The notes beneath the pieces are model-generated. The model was not told where the DNA came from, searched no databases, and worked only from the letters and a program-made list of their open reading frames with translations. This document shows, piece by piece, positions 3,001-60,420 of a stretch of 64,000 bases of DNA. How positions within the stretch are numbered: the first letter of the stretch is position 1; each line of letters begins with the position of its first letter. The translations under genes and the position numbers were made by a program. The stretch is from Blasia pusilla (taxonomy: Eukaryota), in assembly GCA_050084515.1 (NCBI GenBank), contig CM114271.1, positions 27,032,001-27,096,000 of the forward strand, in the 5' to 3' direction.

Positions 3001-4345
3001 AACCCATGATAAAGATATCCTTGATGTCAATTAGATTTTAAAATTTGAGTGATAGTTTCTAAGTTGATTTATTCCTTCTTTGTAAATATTTAATGAGGAT
3101 CACTCTCACTTTGAAAGACTCAAACCTCCGTCAACTTCTAGACATGAGATGTGTTGAAGGTATAGATTGAAATTACGAAATCTAAATTCGCACGAATGTG
3201 GAAATTTTCAAATATAAGTGGGGGTTTCAAAATAAACATATAGATGTGGAGGCCATCGGAATGTGGCAAAAAAGGGTCACCTCACAAATTTATTTTCACA
3301 TTTTCATCTTGTGGAAGGATTCGCGGGTTTCATGAACTAACGACATGCCATGGCACTTCGCACACATGCTAATGCAGATAGTTTGTTTGGTGTGTTGGGA
3401 TTTCATATAAAATTGTCTGCTATTCTAATACTTTCCTCCATTTTTTTTTTTAGTTTTAACTATGCAAACTATGGTTGGAAGTTCACCATGTTCGATTAGA
3501 TAATTAGTTATCTCTTAACCATTCTTGTTAGTTCTAGCTATGTTAATTGTGCTCATGGCATGTTGGCATGCCCCTGCTATGTTGCCTTGTCCATAGTGTG
3601 TTGGCTTATGCATGGTTTGATGGCCTGCTCTTGTTATGTTGACCCTTCCACCTTCCCTTCAACTAGCCCCTTATGGGAAACTATATATATCTCTCTCTTG
3701 TCTACTTCTTTTATCCACTTTTACTCCTGCCCTCTAAGGTAGTGTGTCTTGAGATAAGCTCCTTCGTACCTGAATCCTGCTGGTGCCTTTATCAACTAAA
3801 AAGGAATGTGTGTTGGTGTGGACAATGCTTCAAGACCTCTCTTCAGGTCTTGTGTATTCTAATAAGGTGTTGCTTTGCAAAGCCCCCAATTCTCAATAGA
3901 GGTTGCAGACTAGTTCTACAAACAATCCATTTCAGATTTGCTCTTTCAAATTTATAAGTGATTACCCTCATGTACATGGTTGACGGGAGATCCTGTCGGA
4001 ATCTACTGTCTTTTTGTGCTTTTAAAGTTTTAAAGTGAGATCTGATTTCAACATGGTGGAGAACAGACGAGGATTATAGTGACCAGAGATGGGCTGTGCT
4101 TTCCCAGCAAAGTCTGATGGTCTGTTCAGCAATTCAGAATTCCATTGGAAGGGCTTGCTGCAACGATTTTGCTTTCTAATGGGGTGACATGCAAGAATGA
4201 GTGAACTTTAATGCACGAGAAAACTCACAAACCCAAACTCTTCCTGAAACCTCTTGCAGAATTTTCACTCATCCTGAAACCTCTTGGAGAATTTTCAGTG
4301 TCTGGCAAAATTGAGCCACACTGTTTTGACATTGAGTTTATATAA

Positions 4346-41653: not shown

Positions 41654-44600
41654 TGTCACATCATAGTTAGCCGACAAATACAATTCATAAGATTGTTCAA
41701 GCATAAATCCTTCCTTAGTGTTTATATGAGGTTAGTGATAACTCAATTGCGTCGAGATTGTCATTTTGAACAAACCCTCTATTTTGCTATTTTGGGCTAG
41801 GTGACCCATTGATGGGTTCAACGATCATCATGTTGCCATTTTAGGCTATTTTTGGGGGAAGAGCTCTTTTAGCCCTTCCCAAGGGTATAAAGGCGGGAGA
41901 GATGGCTTTCATTGGCCATCTCTCTCATATTTAGCCTTTAGAGCATTCATCCTTTTAGGGTTTCATAGAAGTTTGAGTACTAGAGTTTGGATTCCCTTAT
42001 GGCAGAGGGTGGATGTGGCTTGATACAGAGATATACATTTGGGAGTGAAGTTGATTGTGTGAGTTATTTTTACGAGATGACGTCCGTACTCCTTAGAGTG
42101 GAGACATGACACACTTGGATTTACACATTTATTATGTGGCAGTGTTCGAAGGAAGGTATTAGAATGCTAAATCTCTTTGGAGGGATTTAGCTCAAGGTTA
42201 GTTATAGTGTTGTTGGCAATCATACAAATGCATCAGTACCTCTATGTTGGGAGAGATGAGATCACACAACGATATCCTAATTTATTACTAGAATTTGTAA
42301 TATAATACAGGAATACTAGTGTACACTATCTTTTGGTATTTCTTTTTTGGGGCATAAGACCTAGATAGAGTTGCCACCATTGATTTGGTAATCTCTAGAT
42401 CGCCCTGCTAAAGTCATTAATTGGATTTTCGAGGACTTGGTTTGTATGATCTGAGGTCGAACATGGGATTGAGCATATTTTGGGATATGTTGTGTGTATT
42501 GTAGCACATAACATGCTAGATGTTATTGCAAGGCACATGTCGTGCGCATACACATCGCTACACAACATACATCGTTATCACCGAACACACACGCAAACAC
42601 TCACGATCCCATGCTAACTCATGGCATCCAAACAACGAGACAAGAAGTACTAAAATATCTCCAATAAAGTAAGATCCAATCTCTCTCTACACCATCTCAT
42701 ACCATAGCTCTCAAAAGTGTGCATTCTCTCTCATGTCAAACCAAACCCACTCTCTTGATGAGAGACTTGGGTTACACTCACAAGGCAAGGGACCATAGCT
42801 CCGCCGCCTTATGCCAAGAGGTTCAACAAAGAGAGAATGGTCTCTCAAGTTCTCTCTCCTTGAGGTATACCCATCCCCTCTCCCAAGCTCTCTCCATAGT
42901 AACCTATTCTCCCAAGTCACCTCCTTGGCTCTTGACCTAATGTAGGAGGTCAAGGGCCACTTACCAAAAATATAAAGTCGATCATATACTCAAAATGGTA
43001 ATTACCTAAAATAGTAAGTTTCTCAATATGGCTCCAAATGAGCCTAAACGAAGGGGAAACCTGCTCTCTCAAGTTTCCCGGGGCCTCAACAGGTTACCCT
43101 CAACCTACTGAGCATATCCTCCACTATTCATGTAGGCGCTCTACTACATCTCACTGATCTATCCTAAAAGATGTGACATTTGTCGTGCATATACACATCG
43201 CTGTCACCAAACACACACACAAACGCGCACGATCCCATCCTAACTCATGGCATCCAAACAAAGAGACAAGAAGTACTAAAATATCTCCAATCGCTCCCCT
43301 AGTTGGTGGTTAGGTCCCTCTAATTCCAGATAGCCATCTATCCCTACCTACCATGACATACATCTCTCGCACACTAAGAGCAAGAAAGGCCAGGTGCTCA
43401 TGTGGCCCCATCATTAGTCGCCTTCTTGTCATCCATATCACAAAAGAAGTCGGAATCAAAACGAACCTGTATCTCCTCTATGTACATCTGGGATATATCC
43501 ATCGTCCTCGAGGAATCCTAGTGAGAGGTGGCGTCAGACATGCCATATGCCAACCTCTCGAACATCCATCACAGACTAGCATCGTGGCCGCACCAAGGGC
43601 AGAACCACACAACATACAACGCAAGCCTGCAAGAACTACTGTTAAGCTCGGATCTACTATACCATCAATGTTAGGAAGATGATATGGCGCACAATTACGC
43701 ACATGGTCCTTCCATACCATACCATCGTGCCCCTCCAGCAAGAGAACACTGGATGGCAAAACGTCACGCACTCTCAGGATAGTGCGCCCTGCAGTCACAT
43801 CCAATGTCGTCGATGTCGTTTGCTGAAAGAAGACATAATCTCTCTGATGAAACCTCTGGATAGTTGGTCGATAACCACCACCCCGAATAGTCACATACCT
43901 CAACGTATTCCGATGCTACGCAATCCCCAAGTTCTCGAACGCCATGGGCATCACTCTCCGAAATAACTCAGCTCTCTGAGAACATGCTCGCATCCATTCA
44001 TCTAGGTCATCAAGGTCTAGCACCTCACCAGCATCTCGACGAATGGCCGCAGGTAAATCTGGCTCTCAGCCATAAAGTAGCAAGTACGGTGAAAAAGACG
44101 CTAAGGATGCCTGCCTAATGAATCTCTATCCCATCGTCTGCACAACTCTCTCCGCTAATCCATCCGCCTCGAGACGATCTCGCGAAGTCGTGCGGTGGTT
44201 GATTAGCGCGTGATCACACAAGGTCTGGAACTCACCGCAAATCGGGTACTGATGCTCAACACTCACCGGTCGCCATAATGACTCAGCACTCTGTCAAGGA
44301 AGGCATAACCTACTCCCTCACTCGCTTTGTCAGGAAATACCTCGATCTACTTCGAGAAGTGCTCGACCATCATCAACACATAACGACTGTGACGCTCTGT
44401 CAAGGCAAAGGTCCTGCAAAATCCAAACTCCATCTATATCCTAAGCCCATGATCAGTAATGGATGCAATTGTGGAGTCGCAACATTGAACAATGCTCAGA
44501 CCCGATCACACACCATGCACCTGGCAAAAAACTGTTGAACGTCAATCTGCATGCCTCGCCACCAATACTGAATCTGGAGCAAGTTGTACGTCCGCTTCAT

Positions 44601-47600
44601 CCCAAAGTGATCCAACTCCTCATGGGCATGCTGCACTAGTCGTGCTCTCTGCAAAGGATGCAACACTACGTGTACTCTGCCATCCTCCCAAACCCTCAAA
44701 ATATGTGTCCCCTCCCAACGGAACTGTCTGGCCCGCTGTAGGATCTGATCCCGCTCTCTAGCACCCACGGTGCTCACAACGCTACCAGTACAAAGGTACT
44801 CCAAGACTTCTCCATCATCATGAATATCTCGGCCACTTGTCATGTCATCGCTATCCTCGGGATCCAAGGACTTTCCACTAGACCTCGCCATTGAAGTCTC
44901 CACACTCTAGCTCTCCATAGCCAACATGCCTAAATAGGCTGACGCGTGCCATTGTGGCAGTGACTCCTCATCACTCTCTCCATGCCATCGAGCTCCAATC
45001 GCATCTTGCTGACTTGGGCATGGGTTACGACTCAACCCATCTACATCCTAGTTGAGCGTCCCAGGTCTATGTACCACATGAAAATCATACTCCTGCAACA
45101 AGAGAGCCCATCTCGCAAGCTTCTGTGTAAGCTTGTCGGACTCCATCAACCACTTCGGTGGTTGATGATTAGTAATGATGGTAAAGGGATTGCCGAATAA
45201 GGAACACCTCAAATGCCAGACAGCCCACACTGCATCCAAGCACTCACCCTTATACGAGTTGTACTTCGCCTCTACAGCGTTGTTCGAGCGGCTAGCGTAA
45301 GCCACCACGAACTCTCTACCCTCATCATTATGTTGGGTGAGCACCGCTCCAAGCCCCAACATGCTCCAATATGTGTGCAACTGGAAAGGATGCCCCCTGA
45401 TCGGTATCCTCAAGATGGGCGTGGACGTCAACCTGTCCTTGAGCAACTGAAATGCTCGCTCTTACTCATCCCCCTAGTGCCACTCGTGATCCACCTTGGT
45501 CAGCAAGGTTAGCGGCTTCACAATCGAAGTGAATCCCTTGACGTACTGCCGATAGGAGTTCGCCAATCCCATGAATGCACGAACACGGCTCACATCTGTA
45601 GGGTGTGGAATGCGTGAGGTAGCCTCTACCTTCGTTTGCTGAACACCAAGGCCCCGTGGGTATATCGTATGACTCAAGTACTCAATCTGGTCGTAGAAGA
45701 ACTTGCATTTGCCTGGATGTAGCTTCAGCCCATGTAATTGCAATCATCGAAACACCTCCTCTAGATGTCGCTCATGCTCCTCAACCGTGGCGCTAAAGAC
45801 TATGATGTCATAAATATAACACCTAGAAAAATCCAGATCAGCCAAGATCCTATCCATGACCCTCTGAAACTCAATTGGGGCATTCTTTAACCCAAATGGT
45901 AAGAACCGCCACTGATACAAATAATCCTTCCCGTGAGGATCGATGCCCCAAAATGTCGTCTTTTGCATGTCCTCCAATCTGATAGGCAGCTGATGGTATT
46001 CGGCTCGCAAATCCAATGAACTGAAGAGCTTTGCGTGACCAATTGCATCAAAGATCTCCTCAGGGGTGGACAATGCATACCTATCGCACTTGGCATACCT
46101 ATCGGACTCGATGACTCTCAGCCTCGCGAGTAATCCCTGAATCATTGATCCCAAACATGCGGCACTCGATCTTCACTCTCCCTCCCCGAGACGTATAACG
46201 TACGACAACAAGCGGTGTGGTGCCGCAAATCGACCAAGCTATCATCTCATCGACAACCTACCCTCAACTCTAGACATCCCACACAGGTCTTTGTCCCCTA
46301 AACCACATTCATAAATGATGCTCTCAGCATCCACACAACCCAATATCCACAAATAAACTACCCAAATCCTTGAATCCCTTATGCGTGCAGGATAAAGGAC
46401 CAAAATAGGTAACCTGAACACATATTCATGTCGCTCCTCAACAACTACATATCTCGATCCCAACTCGGTCGTGGAGACAACTCTTCCAATGAGCAAGTCA
46501 TACTCCTCCCGTACTGACGCTGCTCAAAACTCCTCGATAGATTGTGCGGTTCCAACAGAACGGTGCGGCATTGCAGGTGGCACGGAACAACTACGAACGG
46601 AACGGCCCTCGATGGTGGGATGCGGCACTCGGCGGCATACCCTCCTCAATCAACAATAAACCCACACTCTGCTCCACAATAACGGAGCAACTCGTTGATG
46701 GAGACGGTGTGGTGCATCCATGAGCGGCACGGCACGGCAATCGACGGCGCGTTGCGGCTACGGGCGTCACGGTACGGTACTCGATAGTTGTCGAGCGGCT
46801 ACCAATCACAACATAACAACATGAAATCAAAACGAAAACACCATAACCGGAGGTCATCTACCATCACTGGTTAATGACGAAACAACGATGATGGTGGCGG
46901 CCAAAATTGCGTACGTGGTGGGACTTAAGTCAGAAAATCAATGAACGTTGTGGAAGACCTTCCACTCTCTAACGGCGGCAATGGCAACCAAAGGGTGGAC
47001 AACGGACGGTGGACCATTGACGATGATGGTTGACCGTTGATGGTGACGGCCGACCGGTGACGGTGATGGTTGACCATCAACGGTAGACCGTTGATGGTGA
47101 CTATGACGTCGACGGTCGCCGCCGGCGTGGCGGTTGGTTTGGGGTTTGAACAATTTAACCCTAAAAATTGCCTAGCAATGGCAATTTTGCAAGATTGACC
47201 ATAACTTTTTGCTCACAACTCAAAATTGCACACTATTTCTTGCACAACCTGCACAACTTTATGATCTACAACAACGTCAAAAAATATTTAGAATCAGACA
47301 TTCCAATAAAAACCGACAGGGATTGTCATAAAGCCCAATGTCTTTTTCTCTTAGACAAAATTTGGCAGCGCTTCTGCCCTGATTTCTCCCAACCAAAATG
47401 TAAAACCTATAAAAATACAAATCAACAAGCTACATGGTGCTCTCAAGAGCACCGGTATGGGGCAACCCGCCCCCATAATCAATCCCTATCATAAATTGGG
47501 CAGCGCTTCCGCGCGCCACTCTTCCACACGAAAAATCGACAAATGCAAAGAACAATCAAAATAGCCCTTGCTCCGGTGAGCACTCCCATGAGCTGCTGAA

Positions 47601-48598
47601 ACAACGAGGGACCAATGAGCTCCCCCATGAAGCTCTCTCACTCTCTCATTCTCTCTTTGTAAGTAAGATCCAATCTCTCTCTACACCATCTCACACCATA
47701 GCTCTCAAAGGTATGCACTCTCTCTCATGTCAAACCAAACCCACTCTCCTAATGAGAGGCTTGGATGAGACTCACAAGGCAAGGGACCATAGCTCTGCCG
47801 CCTTATGCCAAGAGGTTCAACAAAGAGAGAATGGTCTCTCAAGCTCTCTCTCCTTGAGATATACCCATCCCCTCTCCCAAGCTCTCTCCATGGTAACCTA
47901 TTCTCCCAAGTCACCTCCTTGGCTCTTGACCTGATATAGGAGGTCAAGGGCCACTTACCAAAAATATAAAGTTGATCATATATTCAAAATGGTACTTACC
48001 TAAAATAGTAAGTTCCTCAATATGGCTCCAAATGAGCCGAAACGAAGGGGAAACCTGCTCTCTCAGGTTTCCTGGGGCCTCAACAAGTCATCCTTGACCT
48101 ACTGAGCCTGTCCTCCACTAATCACAAAGACGCTCTACTACATCTCATCGATCTATCGTAAAAGACGTGACACACACGATCTGGAAGGATTATATGTGAT
48201 ATACTATCTTTCGAAAGTATGTGGGAAAGTTTATTCAATCTATGCAGTCATACATGTAGGTTTGAGGTGAATGTTGTGTGGATCTACAAGGGATGAAGCC
48301 ACAATGTTGGGATGTGATAGCTGTTCTAGAGTATCATATGTCGTATTTGGCACCTCATCAAGAAAAATTCACCCTTCTTGATGAGGCTCCGACAGAACAA
48401 TGATTATGTCCCAAATGTGCATAAATAATCCATTATGTCAAATGAATATGATGTGTGCTACTTGGAGTTAGGAGACCCAATTTCCAATTCGGGGGTGGTT
48501 GTGATCTTATTACATATGTATGAGTCAATTTTTGTATGTTTGCGGATCTACCTATGCGTTGGGAAGATCAATGAATAACGATGTCTATATGCACGACA
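41654..48598 (+). mobile_element. Old, internally deleted relative of the DNMT/PHD Gypsy family; host of the 42538-48172 insertion
   Basis: Begins TGTCAC and ends GCACGACA like the younger copies; flanks ATCT/ATCC (imperfect 4-bp TSD). Degenerate DNMT motifs I-IV at about 42100-42505 (EGIRMLNLFGGI, HQYLYV, IDLVISRSPC, FWDML). Degenerate integrase tail and PHD at about 48175-48425 (MLCGSTRDEATMLGCDSCSR..LCPKC). Confidence 0.7.
42538..48172 (-). mobile_element. Gypsy-type retroelement with split direct repeats (copy A); retains RT-RH-INT-PHD, lacks most of gag, PR and DNMT
   Basis: A1 47661-48172, B1 43181-43291, A2 42666-43178, B2 42538-42665; TSD CACA on both sides. RT at 45474-46100 (LPFGLKNAP). 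RH at 45048-45446. Integrase HHCC at about 44500-44630 and core at about 44130-44460 (WSLDFAGPLP, DGLAER). PHD at 43478-43630. Confidence 0.93.
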
Positions 48599-50567: not shown

Positions 50568-51696
50568 TCTCAGCCACAGGACCCCAAATCGCGATAGAAA
50601 AACCGATGTTAACGCGACTTCCTCCGCCTTCGCCCTAAAGCTCGATCACAACCAACGTTTGCAACTCTCGTCCGACAGTAGCAAACCAAAACATCTCCAA
50701 TGCATCTCGTCAACACCCTGACTCAAACGCTGCTCGATTCATAGCACAAGATTGATAAGAACTGGGTAGTGGCATGATCGTACTCCTCCCAAAGCTCGAT
50801 CGGCTTGACTTAGCAGAATTAGGAGCTCTATCCCACATCCCCGCAATGCATGCATTTTCTTTGCCTCCGAGACATGGAATCGTCTAAACTTTAAACATCT
50901 CTTGCAACCCTCAGATTCATAGGAGTGCCTTAGCCTTAACGTATTCCAATTACCGCTTGAGCCCCTCACTCTATTCCGCCACAACTGCATTCTCCGGCGG
51001 GAAGTTTTGCTGTCAACGCCCTGTCCAAACCAGCCCCGTTCAAGCGGCGCGGCCCAGCCATCCGCTTTCGGCCGCAGCGTCTTGACCGCCAGAATCCAGC
51101 CAGCCACCCTTGGCAACGATATGATCACCATCGCTTTCCCTGCACGAATGTGGGGCCTACCTGAGGTGTGATAGAGGTATGCTCTCGATAGACTGTAATT
51201 TCATGTTTCCCTCCTAAGGAAGAAAAAAAGGGAGGACGATGTTTCTAAAGCCCGAAGCCTTTATGGTTGCGGGCTTAGGGGTTCCCACTAATTGGGAACC
51301 CTTGAGCGCCCTAACCTACCCATTATCTCCTAACTTACCCCCAACTCCCTAACTAACGTCTTTCCTCAAGGTTACCCCTATGGGCCTATCACGTCCTTTA
51401 AGATAGATCGGTGAGATCTAGTAGAGCATCTTCAAGAGTAGTGGAGGATAGGCCTAGGAGGTCGAGGATGACGTGTTGAGGCCCCGGCGAAACCAGAGAG
51501 AGCAGGTTTCCCCTTCGTTTTGGCTCATTTGGAACCATATTGAGGAACTTACTATTTTAGATGAGTACCATTTTGAGTATATGATCGATTATCTATTTTT
51601 GGTAAGAAGCCCTTGACCTCCTACATCAGGTCAAGAGCCAAGGAGGTGACTTGGGAGAATAGGTTACCATGGAGAGAGCTTGGGAGAGGGGAGGGA

Positions 51697-51918
51697 TATA
51701 TATCCCAAGGACAGAGAGTTTGAGAGCTCATTCTCTCTTTGTTGAACCTCTTGGCATGAGGCAGTGGAGCTATGGTCCCTTGCCTTGTGAGTGTAACCCA
51801 AGCCTCTCACTAGGAGAGTGGGTTTGGTTTGACATGAGAGAGAGTGCACACCTTTGAGAGCTATGGTGTGAGATTGTGTAGAGAGAGATTGGATCTTACT
51901 TTACAAAGAGAGAATGAG
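51697..51918 (+). promoter_or_regulatory. Retroelement TATA box, Inr-like start and self-complementary primer-binding site
   Basis: TATATA at 51697-51702. About 28 nt downstream, CTCATTCTCTCTTTGT (51727-51742) is the exact reverse complement of ACAAAGAGAGAATGAG (51903-51918), which lies right at the end of repeat A1. Confidence 0.75.
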
Positions 51919-54900
51919 AGAGTGAGAGAGCTTCATGGGGGAGCTCATTGGTCACTCGCTATTTTTTCAGGTTGGGGATCGTGTTCCCTATTCAACGGCT
52001 CATGGGAGTGCTCATTGGAGCAAGGGTTGCTTGGATTGTTCTTTGCATTTGCCGATTTTTCATGTGGAAGAGTGGCGCGCGAAAGCGCTGCCCAATTTCT
52101 GATAGGGATTGAGTATGGGGGCGGGTTGCCCCATGCCGGTGCTTTCGGGAGCATCATGTTGCTTGCTGATTTGCATTTTTACAGGTTTTACAATTTTGTT
52201 GGGAGAAATGAGCGCGGAAGCGCTGCCAAATTTTTTGTAGGAGAAAGAGACATTGGGCTTTACGACAGTCCCCGTCAATTTTTTACTGGAATGTTTGATT
52301 CTGAATATTTTTTTATGCTGGCATAGATCGTGAAGCTCTGCACGCTGTGCAACAAAAAATGCACAATTTGGAGTTGCGAGAAAAAAATTATGGTCAATCT
52401 TGCAAAATTGCTATTGCTAGGCAATTTTTAGGGTTAAATTGTGCAAACCCTAAACTAGCCGCCACACCAGCGGCGGCCGTCGCCGTCATAGTCACCATCA
52501 ACCTTCAATGGTCAATCATCACCGTCAATGGTCCACCGTCCGTTTTCCACCCTTGGTTGCCATTGCCGCCGTTACGGAGTGGAGGGTCTTCCACAACGTT
52601 CGTTGATTCTCAGACTTGCGTCGCCATCACGTACTTTGTTTTGGTCGCCACCGTCATGAACCTGTGATGGCATATGACCTCATGTTATAGTGTTTGAGTT
52701 TTGATTTCATGCTGTTATGTTGTGATTGGTAGCCGCTCAACGACGATCGAGTACCATGCCGTGACGCCCATAGCCGCAACGCGCTGCCGATTGCCGCGTC
52801 GTGCCGCTCGTGGCCGCACCGCAGCGTCTTGATCGCGGAGCCGCTCTGGCATTGTGGAGAAGAGTGTGGGTTTATTGTTGATTGAGGAGGGTATGCCTCC
52901 AAGTTCCGCATCCCATCATCGAGGCCGTGCCGTTCGTAGCCGTTCCGTGCCGCCTGCAACGCCACACCGTTTCGCTGGAACCGCACCGTCTATCGAGGAG
53001 TTTTGAGCAACGTCAGTACGGGATGAGTATGACTTGCTGATTGGAGGATTTGTGTCCATGACCGAGTTGGGGTTGAGATTTGCAGTTGTTGAGGAGCGAC
53101 ATTGACATGTGTTCAGGCTACCCATTCTGGTCCTTTACCTTGCACGTGTGATCATGAGGGATTCTGGGATTTGGGTAGTTTATTTGGGGATACTGGGTGT
53201 GTGGATGCTGAGAGCATCATTTATGTATGTGGTTTAGGGGACATAGACCTGTGTGGGATGTTCGGAGTTGAGGGTAGGTTATCGGTGAAATGATAGCCTG
53301 GTCGATTTGCCCCACCACGCCGATTATTGCCGCACGTTACATGTCTCGGGGAGGGAGAGTGTAGATCGAGTGCCGCATTTTTGGGATGAGTGATTGAGGG
53401 ATTATTCGCAAGGCAAGAGTGATCGGGTGAGAAGGGCATGAGGGTCATCACGGCGTCCGTTCGGGACTTTGAGAGGCGAGGTGGTGAACCCGAGAGCAGC
53501 TCTAGAGGTTTTACGCGGAGTGGCGTGAGGTTCTGAGGGTCTTCACTTGAGGGACCACCTCGACCTCCTTCTCTGTCATCGTCACACAAGGGGGAGGGTG
53601 TAGAGGAGTTTGTGAGCACATCGCCACACATTGTGAAGAGAGAGTCAGGAGAGGAGAGAGAGTCAGGAGAGGCTACTTCCTCTTCCACAAGTGATGTTTT
53701 AGGAGGAGCCTAGAGATCGTTCACCAAGTAGTCCCGTTGGGAGACGAGGAGCTGGAGTTTCCCGACAGGGTGGTGGAGCTGCCCGTGGAGGAGGTAGAGT
53801 ACTACCACCTAGACGTTGGACGTGAGGGTGGGATGGCTGCTCAGATACAGTAGTTGCATGAGCAGATTGCCGCTATGGCATTGAGGTTACCCGATGTCGG
53901 ATCCGTGGCATCGATATCATATGGAGCAGCCAGAGATGTGGAAGGTCCTAGTTGGATGTGCGGGGTTTCCCAGATGGAGGCCGCCGCAGTTGTGACGCGT
54001 GGAGCAGCTGCAGAGTTGGATCCACAGCGAGAGGAAGCCAGGAAACAGACAAGGCTTCCTCAGTCTTTCACGTTGTCCGAGGCGATGAGGATCCCATCGA
54101 TGGGTCCTGAAGAGCTGGTGATGTTGTTGGTGTGTAGGCATGGAGGGCGATGGGAGAAGCGAGTATGACGACTCCTATTGTTGATGCTCAGGAGGGGCAT
54201 GTGTTGAGCACGTTCTTGGGGGCGGCCACCGTTGTGTACCGCACTCCTTTATTTTCTGCTTCTGATGTTATGACGTTGGGGGGTACGCCCGCCGAGGCTT
54301 TTTGGCTGGCCGCTTCACTATGTGAGCGCAGAGTTGGAGTTCTTGCATCACGTTCAGAGGTGATTGCAGAGGAGGTGATGGACATGCCCTTGGAGCGGAT
54401 GCTCGGGCCGTCTGCGTCAGATGCATGGTAGGCTGCGGCTGCTAGGATGACGGAGATGCCCGCTAGACCCGCGATAGAGCATGCCATGGCTTCTCCTAGT
54501 GTTGTGTTGCTGGATAACCAAGGAGAGGTATTCCAGTTGGTGAGTCCCGGAGATAGAGCTTTTAGTCCATAGCGCGTCTTGTTGGATTCAGGAGCGCAAC
54601 CCCTGATGTTGGGGAAAGCGTCATTCAGAGGATTGGGCTTGACAAGAGCCGATGTGGAGTGTTGTCCATTCCAAATATAGACATCCTTTGGGTGGAGCAA
54701 GTACCACATAGTATATTCACCCGACATGAGGTCGTGGTGAGAATTCGCTGGGGACATCCTACAGATAAGTCCGTGGTGCGAGCCAAGGCGATAGTGACTA
54801 ATGCAGAGTCCTACGACGTCTTGGTTGGTGGAGCAGTGGTATATCCAATGGGGTTTGCCCTGGATTATTGGGAGGATTCAGCGTCCTACAAATCAGGATG

Positions 54901-55289
54901 GCAGTCAGGTGATGGGCGCCTTAGTTCATTATTCGTTCGATTCACAGGTGCAGTGATCGAGCAACGACCAGGAGAGATGGCGACCTTATCAGCATTTAGC
55001 AGTGCCATCACTTGGCCTAGTGATTTGATTGAGGGACATGTCCATGCAGAGGATACTCCCATTCCTGATATTTCTATGGAGAGGAGTGTTATGGTAGCTC
55101 CATCATTCCGTGGAGGAGAGGTGCCATTGTGGGGCTCGACTGAGGAGCTTCGAAGATTGGCATATGAGCACGTGCAGACCGCGTGGAGCGAGGCGTTTGG
55201 ACCGGAGCGTGACGGGTCTGAGGAACCCGAGGTAGCAAGGAGTGCTACGATGACACCCTTGGATACCACACCCATTGTGTGGTGTATCT

Positions 55290-56250
55290 TGGAGGAGGGT
55301 ATTCGAGTGTTAGATCTCTTTGGAGGGATTAGCACCGGGTTAGCTGTTGTTTTGCAGGCACGAGTGCGAGTACAACAGTACCTGTATGTGGAGAGTGATG
55401 ATGTTGCGAGGCGCGTCTCACTATGACATGTGGCGCACTTACGCCTATGTTTTCCCGACTTATTGTCTGTGTCCGCGGTACAGGGGTACCAGAGTTCCCT
55501 ACCCAGGGATATTTCGTTGTTGGGGGCGCAGGACTTAGAGCGGGTAGGGACCATTGATTTGGTCATTTCCGATTGGCCATGTGAGGGCCAATCGAGTGTT
55601 GGACGAGGAAGCGGGTTGGCTGACACTCGGTCTAGATTGTTTTGGGAGATGTTGAGGGTCTTACGGCGATTCAGAGAGCTGGTCTCATTCTCCAGCCTAC
55701 ATTCTGGAGAATGTGCCCATCTTAGGAGACTCCAGGTCACGGGTGGTGACGAGTGCTCATCAGGTGCGTGCTTGGATCGGCCCAAGCAGTATTCTTGGAT
55801 GGGGCGAGTGTAGGTTCTAGAGCCCATCGCCCGCGTCTATGGTGGACCAACTTGGTGCCTCATGCGGGGTTACGGAGGGCGTATGCGAGAGTGGAGCGCC
55901 CCTCCCATTTGTTAGTGGATTCCATTCTAGATCCAGGTCGTCGATCACAAGTAGAGAGGCACTATGATCGACCACCGCTGACTGTGGTCAACAGGGTAGG
56001 CAGGCCGCGGGCAGCCTTTCCCACGTTTGTGAGTTTTCCCGCTTCCTATGCATACAAGGAGGCCGATCCTGGCTTGGTTTGGGATGACCAGGTTCAGAGG
56101 TTGGTGGAGCCCAACGCTGACGAGAGAGAGCGGGCGATGGGATTTCCCACAGGAGGGACGGCAGTCTTGTCAGTATCAGAGGCATCATGACGCCATGTCT
56201 TGGGTCAAGCGATGGACCTGAACTACTTGATATGGATCTTCAGCTTGGGA
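55290..56250 (+). pseudogene. C5-cytosine DNA methyltransferase domain (DNMT3-like motif pattern) within retroelement pol
   Basis: Motifs in order: I IRVLDLFGGISTG (55301), II YLYVE, IV IDLVISDWPCEG (55571), V SRLFWE, VI YILENV (55701), VIII AHRPRLWWTN (55825), IX ERERAMGFP (56122), X LGQAM (56200). Interrupted by stops and frameshifts. Confidence 0.92.
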
Positions 56251-59200
56251 GTGGCTGAGCAGCGTCGGATGAGATCGCGACAGATCACAACGGTTGTGTT
56301 GGTGAGCCCCATGCCTACCGAGACAGTGGAGGCAGTGGCTAGGGGCGAGACCCGAGGAGATCGACACACCAGAGGAGATCGGGAGAGACACCCTTGGACT
56401 TCTTGGGATGTTTTGCAGGTACGCCACGAGATGATAGCCACAGCATCAAGCGTAGTTCCGAGCACTGCACGTGGAGGAGATCAGAATTTGCAGTTGGCAG
56501 CAGAAGAGCAGCCGAGTGTTGTTGTTCAAGATTGGATTGCACCATAGCAACCACCGAAACCCGCGCCAGAGAGTGTTACCATAGTCACGATCAAGACTTG
56601 GGAGCCAGATATGGGCCCTACATTGACAGGAGGAGAGCGGCACCGGATACATCAGTTCCTCAGGAGTTATAGGAGCTACTTTGCATTTAGCATGGAGGAT
56701 TTGGGTACGCTGAAGGGACCAGGGATCCGCATTGAGTTGTCAAGTGACACGCCGATCTTCCGACGACCCTACAGGTACAGTGATATGGAGAGGGCTCTGA
56801 TTCAAAGTAGGAGCTAGGACTTGGTCGGAGGAGGACTAGTGAAGATGTCCCATGGGGAGTATGCATTTGCCATTGTCATGCCCGCCAAGAAGGATGTGCA
56901 TGGCAACTGGACAGATAGGCGGATGTGTGGGGATTACCGACCTATCAATCGACAGACGAAGTCCGATAGTTATGCCATGCCCACCCTTGAGGAGATCTTT
57001 GATGCGATTGGTCACACAAAGGTCTTCAGTTCATTGGATTTGCGAGCCGGATACCATCAACTGCCTATCAGATTGGAGGACAGGCAGAAGATGGCATTTT
57101 GGGGCATCGATCCTCACGGGAAAGATTTTTTGTACCAGTGGTGGTTCTTACCATTTGGGTTAAAGAACGCCCCGACTGAGTTTCAAAGGGTCATGGATAG
57201 GATCTTGGCTGGTCTGGATTTTGCTAGGTGTTATATTGATGACATCATAGTCTTTAGCGCCACGGTTGAGAGCATGAGCGACATCTAGAGGAGGTGTTTC
57301 GACGATTGCAATTACAAGGGCTGAAGCTACATCTAGGCAAGTGCAAGTTCTTCTACAACCAGATTGAGTACTTGGGTCATACAATATACCCAGGGGGCCT
57401 TGGTGTTCAGCATTAAAAGGTAGAGGCTATCTCACGCATTCCACGCCCTACAGATGTGAGTCGTGTTTGCGCATTCATGGGATTGGCAAACTTCTATCGG
57501 CGGTACGTTAAGGGATTCAATTCAATTGTGAAGCCCCTGACCTTGCTAACAAAGGTGGATCATGAGTGGCACTCGGGGGATGAGCAAGAGAAAGCATTTC
57601 AGTTGCTCAAGGATAGGTTGACGTCTGCGCCCATCTTGAGGAGACCGAACCGGGGGCGTCCTTTCCAGTTGCACATAGATTGGAGCATGTAAGGGCTTGG
57701 AGCGGTGCTCACCCAACATGATGATGAGGGTAGAGAGTTTGTGGTGGCTTATGCTAGCCGCTCGAACAATGCTGCAGAGGTGAAGTACAACTCGTATGAG
57801 GGTGAGTGCTTGGCTGCGGTGTGGGCTGTCACGCATTTTAGGTGTTACTTATTCGGCAACCCCTTTACCATCATCACTGATCATCAACCACTTTAGTGGT
57901 TGATGGAGTCCGGTGGTTATCGACCAACTATCCGGAGGTTTCATCAGGGAGATTATGTCTACTTGCAGCAGACGGCACCGACGACGTTGTATGTGACTGC
58001 AGGGTGCACTATCTTGAGAGTGCGTGACGTTTTTCCATCCGGTGTTCTCTTGCTGGAGGGACGCGATGGTATGGTATGGAAGGACCATGTGCGTAATTGT
58101 GCACCATATCACCTTCCTAATATTGATGGTATAGTAGATCCGAGCTTAGCAGTAGTTCCTGCAGGGTTGTATGTTGTGTGGTTCTGCCCCTGGTGCGGCT
58201 ACGATGCTAGTCTATGATGGTTGTTCGAGAGGTTGGCATATGGCATGTTTGACGCCACCTCTCACTAGGGTTCCTTGGGGACGATGGATGTGTCCCAGAT
58301 GTACATAGAGGAGATACTAGGTAGGTTTCAATCCCGACTTTTTCTCTGACATGGATGACACGAAGGCGACTAACGATGGGGCCACATGAGCACCCAACCT
58401 TCTTGCTCTTAGCGTCTGAGAGATGTATGTCATGGTAGGTAGGGATAGATGGCTATCAGCAGTTAGCGGGACATAACCACCAGCTAGGGGGGCAATTGGA
58501 GATATTTTGGTACTTCTTGTCTCGTTGTTTGGATGCCATGAGTTAGCATGGGATCGTGCGTGTTTGTGTGTGTGTTCGGTGACAACGATGTATGTTGTGT
58601 AGCAATGTGTATGTGCACGACAACTGTCACGTCCTTTAGGATAGATCGGTGAGATCTAGTAGAGCGTCTTCAAGAGTAGTGTAGGACATGCCTAGGAGGT
58701 CGAGGATGACCTACTGAGGCCCCGTGAAACCTGCTCTCTCAGGTTTCCCCTTCGTTTTGGCTCATTTGGAGCCATATTGAGGAACTTACTATTTTAGGTA
58801 ACTACCATTTTGAGTATATGATAGACTTTCTATTTTTGTTAAGTGGCCATTGACCTCCTACATCAGGTCAATAGCCAAGGAGGTGACTTGGGAGAATAGG
58901 TTACCATGGAGAAAGCTTGGGAGAGGGGAGGGGTATATATCCCAAGGAGAGAGAGAGCTTGAGAGCTCATTCTCTCTTTGTTGAATCTCTTGGCATGAGG
59001 CGGCGGAGCTATGGTGCCTTGCCTTGTGAGTGTAACCCAAGCCTCTCATTAGGCGAGTGGGTTTGGTTTGACATGAGAGAAAGTGCACACCTTTGAGAGC
59101 TATGGTGTGAGATTGTGTAGAGAGAGATTGGATCTTACTTTATTGGAGATATTTTGGTACATCTTGTCTCGTTGTTTGGATGCCATGAGTTAGTATGGGA

Positions 59201-60420
59201 TCGTGCGTGTTTGTGTGTCTGTTCGGTGACAACGATGTATGTTGTGTAGCGATGTGTATGTGCACGACAGGCCTTTTCGGGCTAGAATGCTCCACCTTTC
59301 GATCATGAGGGATAATGTTGGACCGGAATGCCACAAATATCCATATATCCATCGTGGATATTGCCATGATATGGGTTTGTTTATGAAGCTTATCATGTAC
59401 ATGATCCCCATGGTAACCCCCAAGCCTACATGAGCAACATCACTCCCAAAAATGCCGACCTTCTTCTTTCTCTCCATCTTATGGACGTCAACTGGGGAAC
59501 TTGTGAGCTGAAGTGTATCTTTCCAATGAATAAAAATTTGTGTTGGAGATCCATGTAAGCAACCAATGATGACTTGAGGATGAATGAAATCTAACGGTCA
59601 TAACAACCCAACCATTGGAAGGAAGTTGAGTACGATTTGATGGCAGAAAATTGTATGTCAACGGAATGGCTTTTGACATCAGCGAATGACCTCATTCCTT
59701 GGAAAACCCTAAGCCTATTTTCCAAAGTTTTCTGAGCTGACTACTTGCAAAATGGTTTCCCACGATTGGACAGGTTTGTCCTCTTTGGAATGGTTTCCAT
59801 CGAACATTGCACCTTCTTTCGAGAATGGCCTTTGCATCTAACACGTTATTGCTCCAACATTATCGTTGCAATGTTATCGCTAGGATTCATCATTTGGTGC
59901 ATCTTTTATTAGACACCCAAGAGTATTGTTGCACGAAAGATACTAACGCTCAATATCCCGTTTGCAAAGGTCGGAGTACACGGAAAATGCTTTTTGTGTT
60001 TGGACTATTTTTTCTTGGAATTCTCTCTGTCACACATGCCTATGCACCATGGTGAACCTTTTTTTTTCCAATTTTCTTAGCAAATGTCTTCCTGCAACGA
60101 GCAATATCCTTAAGGCTTTAGAAAGTGTGTTCCTTCACAAGATGTAGTTAGGAAGGATTCGCGGGTTCTCTTGAGTGTGAACTTATGAAAAATTTGGTGC
60201 TCATGTTGAGGTACTCTTGGATTTTTCCACTCTTCCGCTCCTTCTCATATTCCACTACCCTATTGTTGTTGTGCTTATTAAACAACTTATGTAGTGTCAT
60301 TTTGGCATTAATAGGTCTTGGTAAATCTTCCCTTCGAGTTCAATCATGGCATCTACCTGTCTCCAAAGAGTTGTGTGAGGAGATTCATAGAGGATGGGGA
60401 AACCCTATACCTAGGGTCTA

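Follow-up and report, generated by a model that had tools for sequence, protein, structure and literature searches.

How can a retrotransposon with the coding content of a Ty3/Gypsy element come to lie in a genome without a long terminal repeat (LTR) at each end? The question is raised by a 64,000-nt stretch of Blasia pusilla contig CM114271.1, called the window below, which holds two copies of one element family. Copy B lies on the plus strand and copy A on the minus strand (Table 1). In both, two repeats, A and B, are distributed in the order A1-internal-B1-A2-B2. A preliminary description of this DNA took the arrangement as the integrated form of a circular cDNA that had been opened inside its LTR. 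With moderate confidence, we hold that the provirus is a circular permutation of a two-LTR cDNA, which would have been cut at a site internal to the LTR by the DDE integrase of a self-priming Ty3/Gypsy lineage.

The order of parts and the TG..CA ends of copy B were recovered with a repeat finder and blastn at the coordinates given in Table 1, and the same layout, ends and a 4-bp target site duplication (TSD) of different sequence were confirmed for copy A. A1 of copy B begins with TATCACG, corresponding to a TG end in which the G is mutated to A, and base 51903 can be assigned either to A1 or to the internal side. The internal region extends to 58494. Downstream of it, B1 meets A2 in the sequence CA-AC-TG (58621–58626), and at the A2|B2 joint (59141|59142) the end of U5 is fused directly to the start of U3. 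By blastn, the repeats of copy B were 91.9% (A1 versus A2, 517 nt) and 96.9% (B1 versus B2, 128 nt) identical; the identity of A1 and A2 in copy A was 95%. Copy A has a specific deletion of 3530 bp of protease and DNA methyltransferase sequence, and copy B one of 1257 bp of RNase H and integrase core at approximately 57912 (blastn breakpoints). With a separate large internal deletion in each, both copies are old and dead. Their flanks are unrelated as well as their TSDs being different, and because of the different flanks the copies are not a segmental duplication, a possibility that the preliminary description had named as fatal to its own reading.

The family was sampled through 80 metagenome loci obtained by a contig scan with an alignment of six relatives, which stands in for a genome-wide census; layouts were called by self-comparison and with a library of A and B sequences. 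Downstream of pol, 18 loci carried B-A-B (15 unique insertions after removal of duplicates) and 13 carried B alone, followed directly by flanking DNA (12 unique). A single A stood upstream of pol in 26 loci (24 unique), and none of these 24 unique 5' ends was preceded, within 200 nt of A, by a sequence resembling A or B. A conventional A+B LTR at both ends was thus not encountered. The mirror form A-B-A-internal-B, which had been predicted as a second product of the circle, was likewise missing (0/24 unique 5' ends). At least three sequence lineages shared the split-repeat layout, which is a real, family-wide feature.

Both ends were readable in 13 elements, eight with split repeats and five of a short A-internal-B form. 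The 4-bp TSD was perfect in 10 of the 13 and matched at three of four bases in the other three, with a chance of 1/256 per element for a 4-bp match of the flanks. As predicted, the duplications are found family-wide at the TG and CA ends; they flank the element where A1 starts and where B2 ends, and not at the borders of a conventional LTR pair. Their 4-mers differ in nearly every element (ATTA occurred twice) and are unrelated to the 2-nt spacer between B and A. A1 and A2 are 78–95% identical in the sampled elements, which are therefore all old. The short form had also been foreseen, and it exists with TSDs: L010, L037, L042, L060, L051 and seven further unique loci lack the second A-B, and among the five with both ends readable, four TSDs were perfect and one matched at 3/4 bases.

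Coding content and reverse-transcription signals

Pfam was run on open reading frame (ORF) pieces, 20 from the window and 10 from L076, a nearly intact split-repeat locus of the metagenomes; the reading frames were interrupted by stop codons. The family has the Ty3/Gypsy domain order of protease, C5 cytosine DNA methyltransferase (DNMT), reverse transcriptase (RT), RNase H and an HHCC-DDE integrase with a terminal PHD finger. In the window, RVT_1, RT_RNaseH and Integrase_H2C2 followed one another in the order of a Gypsy pol. L076 encoded DNMT, RT, RNase H, H2C2, rve and PHD domains, and its protease match was weak and below the cut-off. With the C-terminus of the copy A integrase as the query, 23 relatives were found, most of which have rve and PHD. 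The relatives at 54–78% identity bear rve (PF00665), and, of the named ones, those closest to the query come from two liverworts, Marchantia (78% identity) and Calypogeia, and from the moss Sphagnum. One relative, P0021, is an intact polyprotein of 1516 aa organized as DNMT-RT-RNase H-HHCC-rve-PHD. Among solved structures (PDB), it is closest to Ty3 Gag-Pol (E 2e-94); the catalytic D, D and E line up between the two, and this triad was invariant in 6/6 aligned relatives. The HHCC finger and DD35E core of a Gypsy integrase are therefore recognized by way of the relatives, the window itself scoring only for the HHCC finger and the C-terminal part.

By its domains, the element is of Ty3/Gypsy type with a DDE integrase, as had been proposed: H2C2 and PHD in copy A, rve in L076 and the relatives, and Ty3 as the best structure match agree in this. 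The hidden Markov model of the tyrosine recombinases (Phage_integrase, PF00589) matched none of the 20 window pieces or the 10 ORFs of the nearly intact L076, and Phage_integrase was absent from the precomputed Pfam lists of P0021 and P0024–P0026. Further traits of Gypsy elements are TG..CA termini with a short TSD of fixed length, which are present, and two complete identical LTRs at the ends of the provirus, which are replaced by A-internal-B-A-B. The PHD finger ends the integrase (43481–43615 on the minus strand of the window; 14090–14224 in L076) at the place where chromoviruses have a chromodomain, and it may direct target choice via histone marks.

A G-run purine tract adjoined B1 in 19/19 metagenome loci examined and in both window copies. 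At the other side of the internal region, the 14–17 nt directly after A1 were the exact complement of a site in A (17 nt in L031, 15 nt in L076 and L009). The sequence of this primer site differed among three lineages, and its complement in A covaried. The complement lies 30 nt downstream of a TATA box in copy B and 31–32 nt downstream of TATAAAA in L057, L076 and L019; no TATA box was found upstream of the complement in L031. In a shuffle test, 0 of 2000 shuffles reached the observed length of the complement in five of six elements (16 nt for copy B), and the mutated 10-nt match of the sixth, L062, was reached by 10 of 2000. This is the sequence signature of Tf1-type self-priming, and because of it the RNA is predicted to start inside A and U5 to end at the end of A. 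No RNA start site at A341 was seen in the read tables, whose 269-base bins are too coarse for an RNA start or a poly(A) site.

Since the purine tract adjoins B1 and the primer site adjoins A1, the LTR in reverse-transcription terms is B+nn+A, where nn is the 2-nt spacer, in agreement with the preliminary description; the expected cDNA is therefore B.A-internal-B.A. Several other assignments were considered and rejected. Priming by a tRNA is unlikely, judged from the sequence of the three primer sites, none of which begins with TGG. An LTR made of A only is ruled out by the TSD beyond B2 and by the lack of a purine tract before A2, B+A at both ends of the provirus by the lack of B upstream of A1, and A+B by the internal region that separates A1 from B1 in every copy.

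The two joints and a proposed route of integration

The joint of B with A was constant, whereas that of A with B was ragged. B|A reads ..ACA nn TGTCA.., with a spacer of exactly 2 nt between CA and TG in 20/20 unique junctions (GC in nine, AC in six, AT in two, GT in two and AA in one). Among 17 unique A|B joints, seven were exact, nine altered and one ambiguous. Five of the altered joints had one extra nucleotide, one had one to two, and one had a 21-nt insert; the remaining two lacked 2 nt at an AT microhomology (A ends in ..AT and B starts with AT..), with the start of their own B1 intact. The raggedness has the pattern of cellular end-joining, apparently repeated at each insertion, and A2|B2 behaves like the end-to-end joint of cDNA termini that it had been thought to be, placing the end of U5 on the start of U3.

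The A|B joint was also scarce in RNA. Three raw RNA-seq runs, carrying the same species label as the best-matching DNA run, were mapped on the element in 269-base bins. The whole element was covered in sense, as judged by the dominant strand of the first mates, at a depth of 13–218. Depth was 7–14 over 59101–59360 (the end of A2, B2 and flank), versus 106–218 over the two bins holding B1. B is shorter than a read, and reads over B2 must therefore take in the A|B joint or the flank; the low depth there thus means that the A|B joint is rare in RNA.

We propose that reverse transcription follows the usual LTR logic up to the two-LTR cDNA. U3 would start at B beside the purine tract, R approximately 30 nt after the TATA box in A, and U5 would end at the end of A beside the primer site. 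The integrase would then bypass the outer ends of this cDNA and act where its TG and CA recognition ends stand back to back inside the LTR (B-CA nn TG-A). If the upstream LTR copy of CA-nn-TG were cleaved 3' of each CA, the 3'-OH ends would be recessed behind 2-nt 5' overhangs, giving the substrate that strand transfer normally uses, and the two cut ends would be inserted with a 4-bp stagger. The outer termini of the cDNA, the end of A and the start of B, would be end-joined, so that A2|B2 would be made anew in each cycle and the provirus would read A-internal-B.A|B. The same provirus would result from joining before cutting, through a two-LTR circle, and from cutting first and joining the outer ends afterwards; this order, like the chemistry of cleavage, is conjectured from the sequence.

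Several points weigh against such a route. The circle and the cut attachment site are reconstructed from integrated copies only, and both window copies are dead, with an integrase core too decayed for Pfam. A two-LTR circle has two identical sites, and the mirror form is therefore expected to be as common as the observed form; its absence from the 24 unique 5' ends is not predicted by a symmetric circle. The 12 unique short A-internal-B elements may be direct integration products or B-by-B deletions, and fit both alike. Lastly, three copies of clade 1 share the same extra A at A|B (L031 10691–10693, L023 9320–9322, L014 approximately 3050–3054). Neither the base that follows A1 nor the one in front of B1 accounts for it as a template, and it could mean that the joint was inherited, or that an untemplated base is regularly added.

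The missing mirror form may be due to a later collapse of its tandem A copies (290–520 bp, 113–180 bp apart) to the short form. Such a collapse would also account for the 12 short elements, and all sampled copies are old enough for it. We prefer a refinement in which the integrase would cut while reverse transcription is still under way. As long as the plus strand has not reached the downstream LTR, the site would have one plus-strand copy, and therefore a single double-stranded site would exist at a time, which would account for the missing mirror form: cutting after the second strand transfer would yield the observed polarity only, and earlier cutting would yield the short form.

The alternative that survives best, itself unlikely, is that a linear A-internal-B-A-B cDNA with canonical nn-TG..CA-nn ends is made by RT without help, by additional template switching such as a jump of the plus strand from the A end to the B start; this cDNA would then be integrated in the ordinary way, with neither a circle nor an internal cut. 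The constant polarity (0/24 mirror forms) would fit the asymmetry of plus- and minus-strand synthesis, and the single extra bases at A|B, among them the A shared by the three clade-1 copies, resemble untemplated additions at switches. However, there is no template in which the end of A runs into the start of B, RNA rarely spanning A|B. The left end would moreover require plus-strand priming just before A, where there is no purine tract, whereas a conserved one precedes B, and the 2-nt losses at the AT microhomology, like the 21-nt insert, have the look of cellular end-joining.

Far less probable is replication of the DIRS/PAT/Ngaro type, in which a tyrosine recombinase provided in cis or in trans would integrate the circle and the DDE integrase would be idle. 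A1-B1-A2-B2 repeats are a hallmark of PAT and Ngaro (PMC4157794), and de Mendoza et al. 2018 call the repeats of KnitGypsy-Dnmt3, an element of Klebsormidium nitens, DIRS-like (PMC5890265). Yet Phage_integrase was found neither in the window pieces or the L076 ORFs nor in the Pfam lists of P0021 and P0024–P0026, and the family has TG..CA termini and a conserved DDE triad. Elements with a tyrosine recombinase are flanked by a short core that does not vary and is identical to the spacer of the circle junction (PMC7192593). The flanking 4-mers found here vary by copy and never match the 2-nt spacer, and this family is therefore set apart from those elements. Least credible of all is a conventional LTR element rearranged after insertion (by a tandem LTR, a nested insertion or misassembly), for which the age and large deletions of both window copies could speak, but the same order of parts recurs in these two copies, in 15 unique 3' ends from the metagenomes that span at least three lineages and, by its published legend, in the K. 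nitens element (PMC5890265), with TSDs bracketing the A1 start and the B2 end and no B-like sequence upstream of A in any of the 24 unique 5' ends.

Known systems and features new to this family

That a plant Ty3/Gypsy lineage obligatorily integrates via an internal palindromic site of its LTR, CA-nn-TG, and that its provirus keeps the uncut end-joint of U5 and U3, is a claim for which we find the balance even. In the textbook view, retroviruses and LTR retrotransposons insert a linear cDNA through its outer termini, and a joint between two LTRs is regarded as a dead end. A circle model of integration was reportedly put forward by Panganiban and Temin in 1984. In elements of the IS3, IS30 and IS256 type, a DDE enzyme acts on abutted ends with a short spacer in a circle junction; these are DNA transposons without reverse transcription and with unrelated transposases, and the likeness is one of working, not of membership. 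The LTR-LTR palindrome of retroviruses has a 4-nt spacing. It is the U5|U3 joint, and the route through it is accessory or disputed, whereas this family has its palindrome within U3, around a 2-nt spacer, keeps U5|U3 uncut in the provirus and appears to use the internal route obligatorily. Cleavage at the palindromic junction of two LTRs has been reported for the integrases of foamy virus and HIV-1 (Delelis et al. 2005, PMC1180852; 2007, PMC1905944), and by analogy a DDE integrase would here cut an internal CA..TG palindrome to give 3'-processed ends.

The preliminary description knew of no Gypsy lineage with this architecture, which is, however, already in print as a remark. According to the legend of Fig. 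4c in de Mendoza et al. 2018 (PMC5890265), KnitGypsy-Dnmt3 has repeats as in DIRS and the domains of Gypsy. Like the present family, it combines Gypsy domains with a Dnmt3-type C5 methyltransferase inside Pol and the order A-coding-B-A-B. The two differ in host, K. nitens in that case and Marchantia, Calypogeia and Sphagnum for the nearest named relatives here. The main text of PMC5890265 does not contain the terms 'target site', 'circular' or 'PHD', and its Gypsy section mentions no TSDs, primer site, circle or mechanism. A literature search on split-repeat, permuted or circular-intermediate Gypsy elements, with the supplements of PMC5890265 outside its scope, found no paper proposing a mechanism. 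When the DNMT part of P0021 was the query of a word-based search, the hits were P0021 itself and three metagenome proteins; K. nitens was not represented among them. This lineage and the K. nitens element are perhaps the same.

Tf1-type self-priming is predicted for the plant Tcn1 clade by Neumann et al. 2019 (PMC6317226). In the Tf1/Sushi group, which includes Tcn1, the first bases of the transcript complement a primer site adjoining the LTR, as they would in this family. Those elements have ordinary paired LTRs and a chromodomain, whereas the present family has split repeats, a DNMT and, in place of a chromodomain at the C-terminus of the integrase, a PHD finger. PAT, TOC and Ngaro of the order DIRS share with it the A1-internal-B1-A2-B2 geometry and the constant polarity (PMC4157794). 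They have a tyrosine recombinase and no true TSDs, in contrast to the DDE integrase, TG..CA ends and variable 4-bp TSDs described here.

New in this study are the occurrence of such elements in a liverwort-like genome and also in contigs of metagenomes for which bryophyte proteins are the nearest named relatives, together with the anatomy of the TSDs and the attachment site, the self-primer, the contrast between a constant and a ragged joint, the short form and the polarity problem. The family lacks paired LTRs and works like an integrator that uses a circle junction or an internal attachment site, by a mechanism demonstrated in part. If the proposal is true, the family represents a natural, obligatory version of the long-abandoned model of the circle junction as the attachment site, and widens the known natural repertoire of retroviral-type integrases. 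Split direct repeats would then follow from integration at a site inside the LTR, whichever enzyme acts. This would link LTR elements to the DIRS/PAT/Ngaro architecture in a concrete way, with a testable route for the origin of split-repeat tyrosine-recombinase elements, and would explain why LTR-finding software misses or mis-annotates elements of this kind.

Feature coordinates and further observations

Table 1. Features of the two element copies in window coordinates (position 1 is the first base of the window).
Feature	Position	Strand	Remarks
Copy A	42538-48172	-	part order as in copy B
A1 of copy A	48172-47662	-	
B1 of copy A	43291-43181	-	
Spacer AA of copy A	43180-43179	-	
A2 of copy A	43178-42666	-	
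B2 of copy A	42665-42538	-	
TSD of copy A, TGTG on the minus strand (CACA on the plus strand)	48176-48173 and 42537-42534	-	
RT and RNase H of copy A	45051-46172	-	Pfam RVT_1 2e-16, RT_RNaseH 2.9e-28
Integrase of copy A	43481-44906	-	HHCC zinc finger, decayed catalytic core, C-terminal domain, PHD finger
HHCC zinc finger of copy A integrase	44499-44906	-	Pfam Integrase_H2C2 9.9e-14
C-terminal domain and PHD finger of copy A integrase	43481-43915	-	Pfam PHD 1.4e-9
Left TSD of copy B, GGCC	51383-51386	+	same 4 bases at 59270-59273
A1 of copy B	51387-51902	+	repeat finder, blastn
TATA box in A1 of copy B	51697-51702	+	
Self-primer complement (putative RNA start) in A1 of copy B	51727-51742	+	
Putative self-priming primer binding site of copy B, 16 nt	51903-51918	+	exact reverse complement of A positions 341-356
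C5 cytosine DNA methyltransferase domain fragment within pol, copy B	55427-55810	+	Pfam PF00145, E 1.2e-5, above cut-off
Reverse transcriptase of copy B	56818-57285	+	Pfam RVT_1, E 1.4e-18
Start of RNase H domain of copy B	57417-57689	+	Pfam RT_RNaseH_2
Polypurine tract AGGGGGGCA adjoining B1 of copy B	58486-58494	+	read from sequence
B1 of copy B	58495-58622	+	ends with CACGACA
Putative uncut internal attachment site of copy B	58616-58631	+	B-end CA, spacer AC (58623-58624), TG start of A2
A2 of copy B	58625-59141	+	
B2 of copy B	59142-59269	+	
Right TSD of copy B, GGCC	59270-59273	+	

RNA reads matched the family at ≥85% and had loose ends at 57910/57912, at the deletion of copy B; copies with intact RNase H and integrase are therefore transcribed. 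With intact relatives transcribed in the organism of the RNA runs, the cDNA forms are open to direct examination. DNA contigs of run X1, which were too short for whole-element forms, contained A|B joints with letters differing between the two sides. Over window positions 51300–59360, the summed DNA word depth of A and B in this run was approximately 5–20 times that of the internal region, and the differences between the reads and the window copy were mostly C>T and G>A. The depth excess and the substitution bias suggest many solo or non-autonomous copies and methylation-driven decay.

In all three RNA runs, 11–24 reads joined 56710 to 57781, skipping 1070 bases of RT. The skipped segment has the ends TG..GG, with 5 ambiguous bases; the joined RNA comes from a deletion derivative that is expressed, or may have been spliced. 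In two of the runs, 31 and 64 reads entered A exactly at its TG (58625) from unrelated upstream sequence (agreement 0.46), which fits read-through into many differing insertion sites beginning at the same base. The U3 part of A contains an inverted repeat, GAAACC..GGTTTC, a possible conserved hairpin; RNA reads linked opposite strands at 58689–58749 in A2 and 51450–51510 in A1. Just outside copy A, the segment 42106–42259 matches the motif-I part of the copy B DNMT (55250–55401) at 73% identity and is probably the remnant of a third, older family member.

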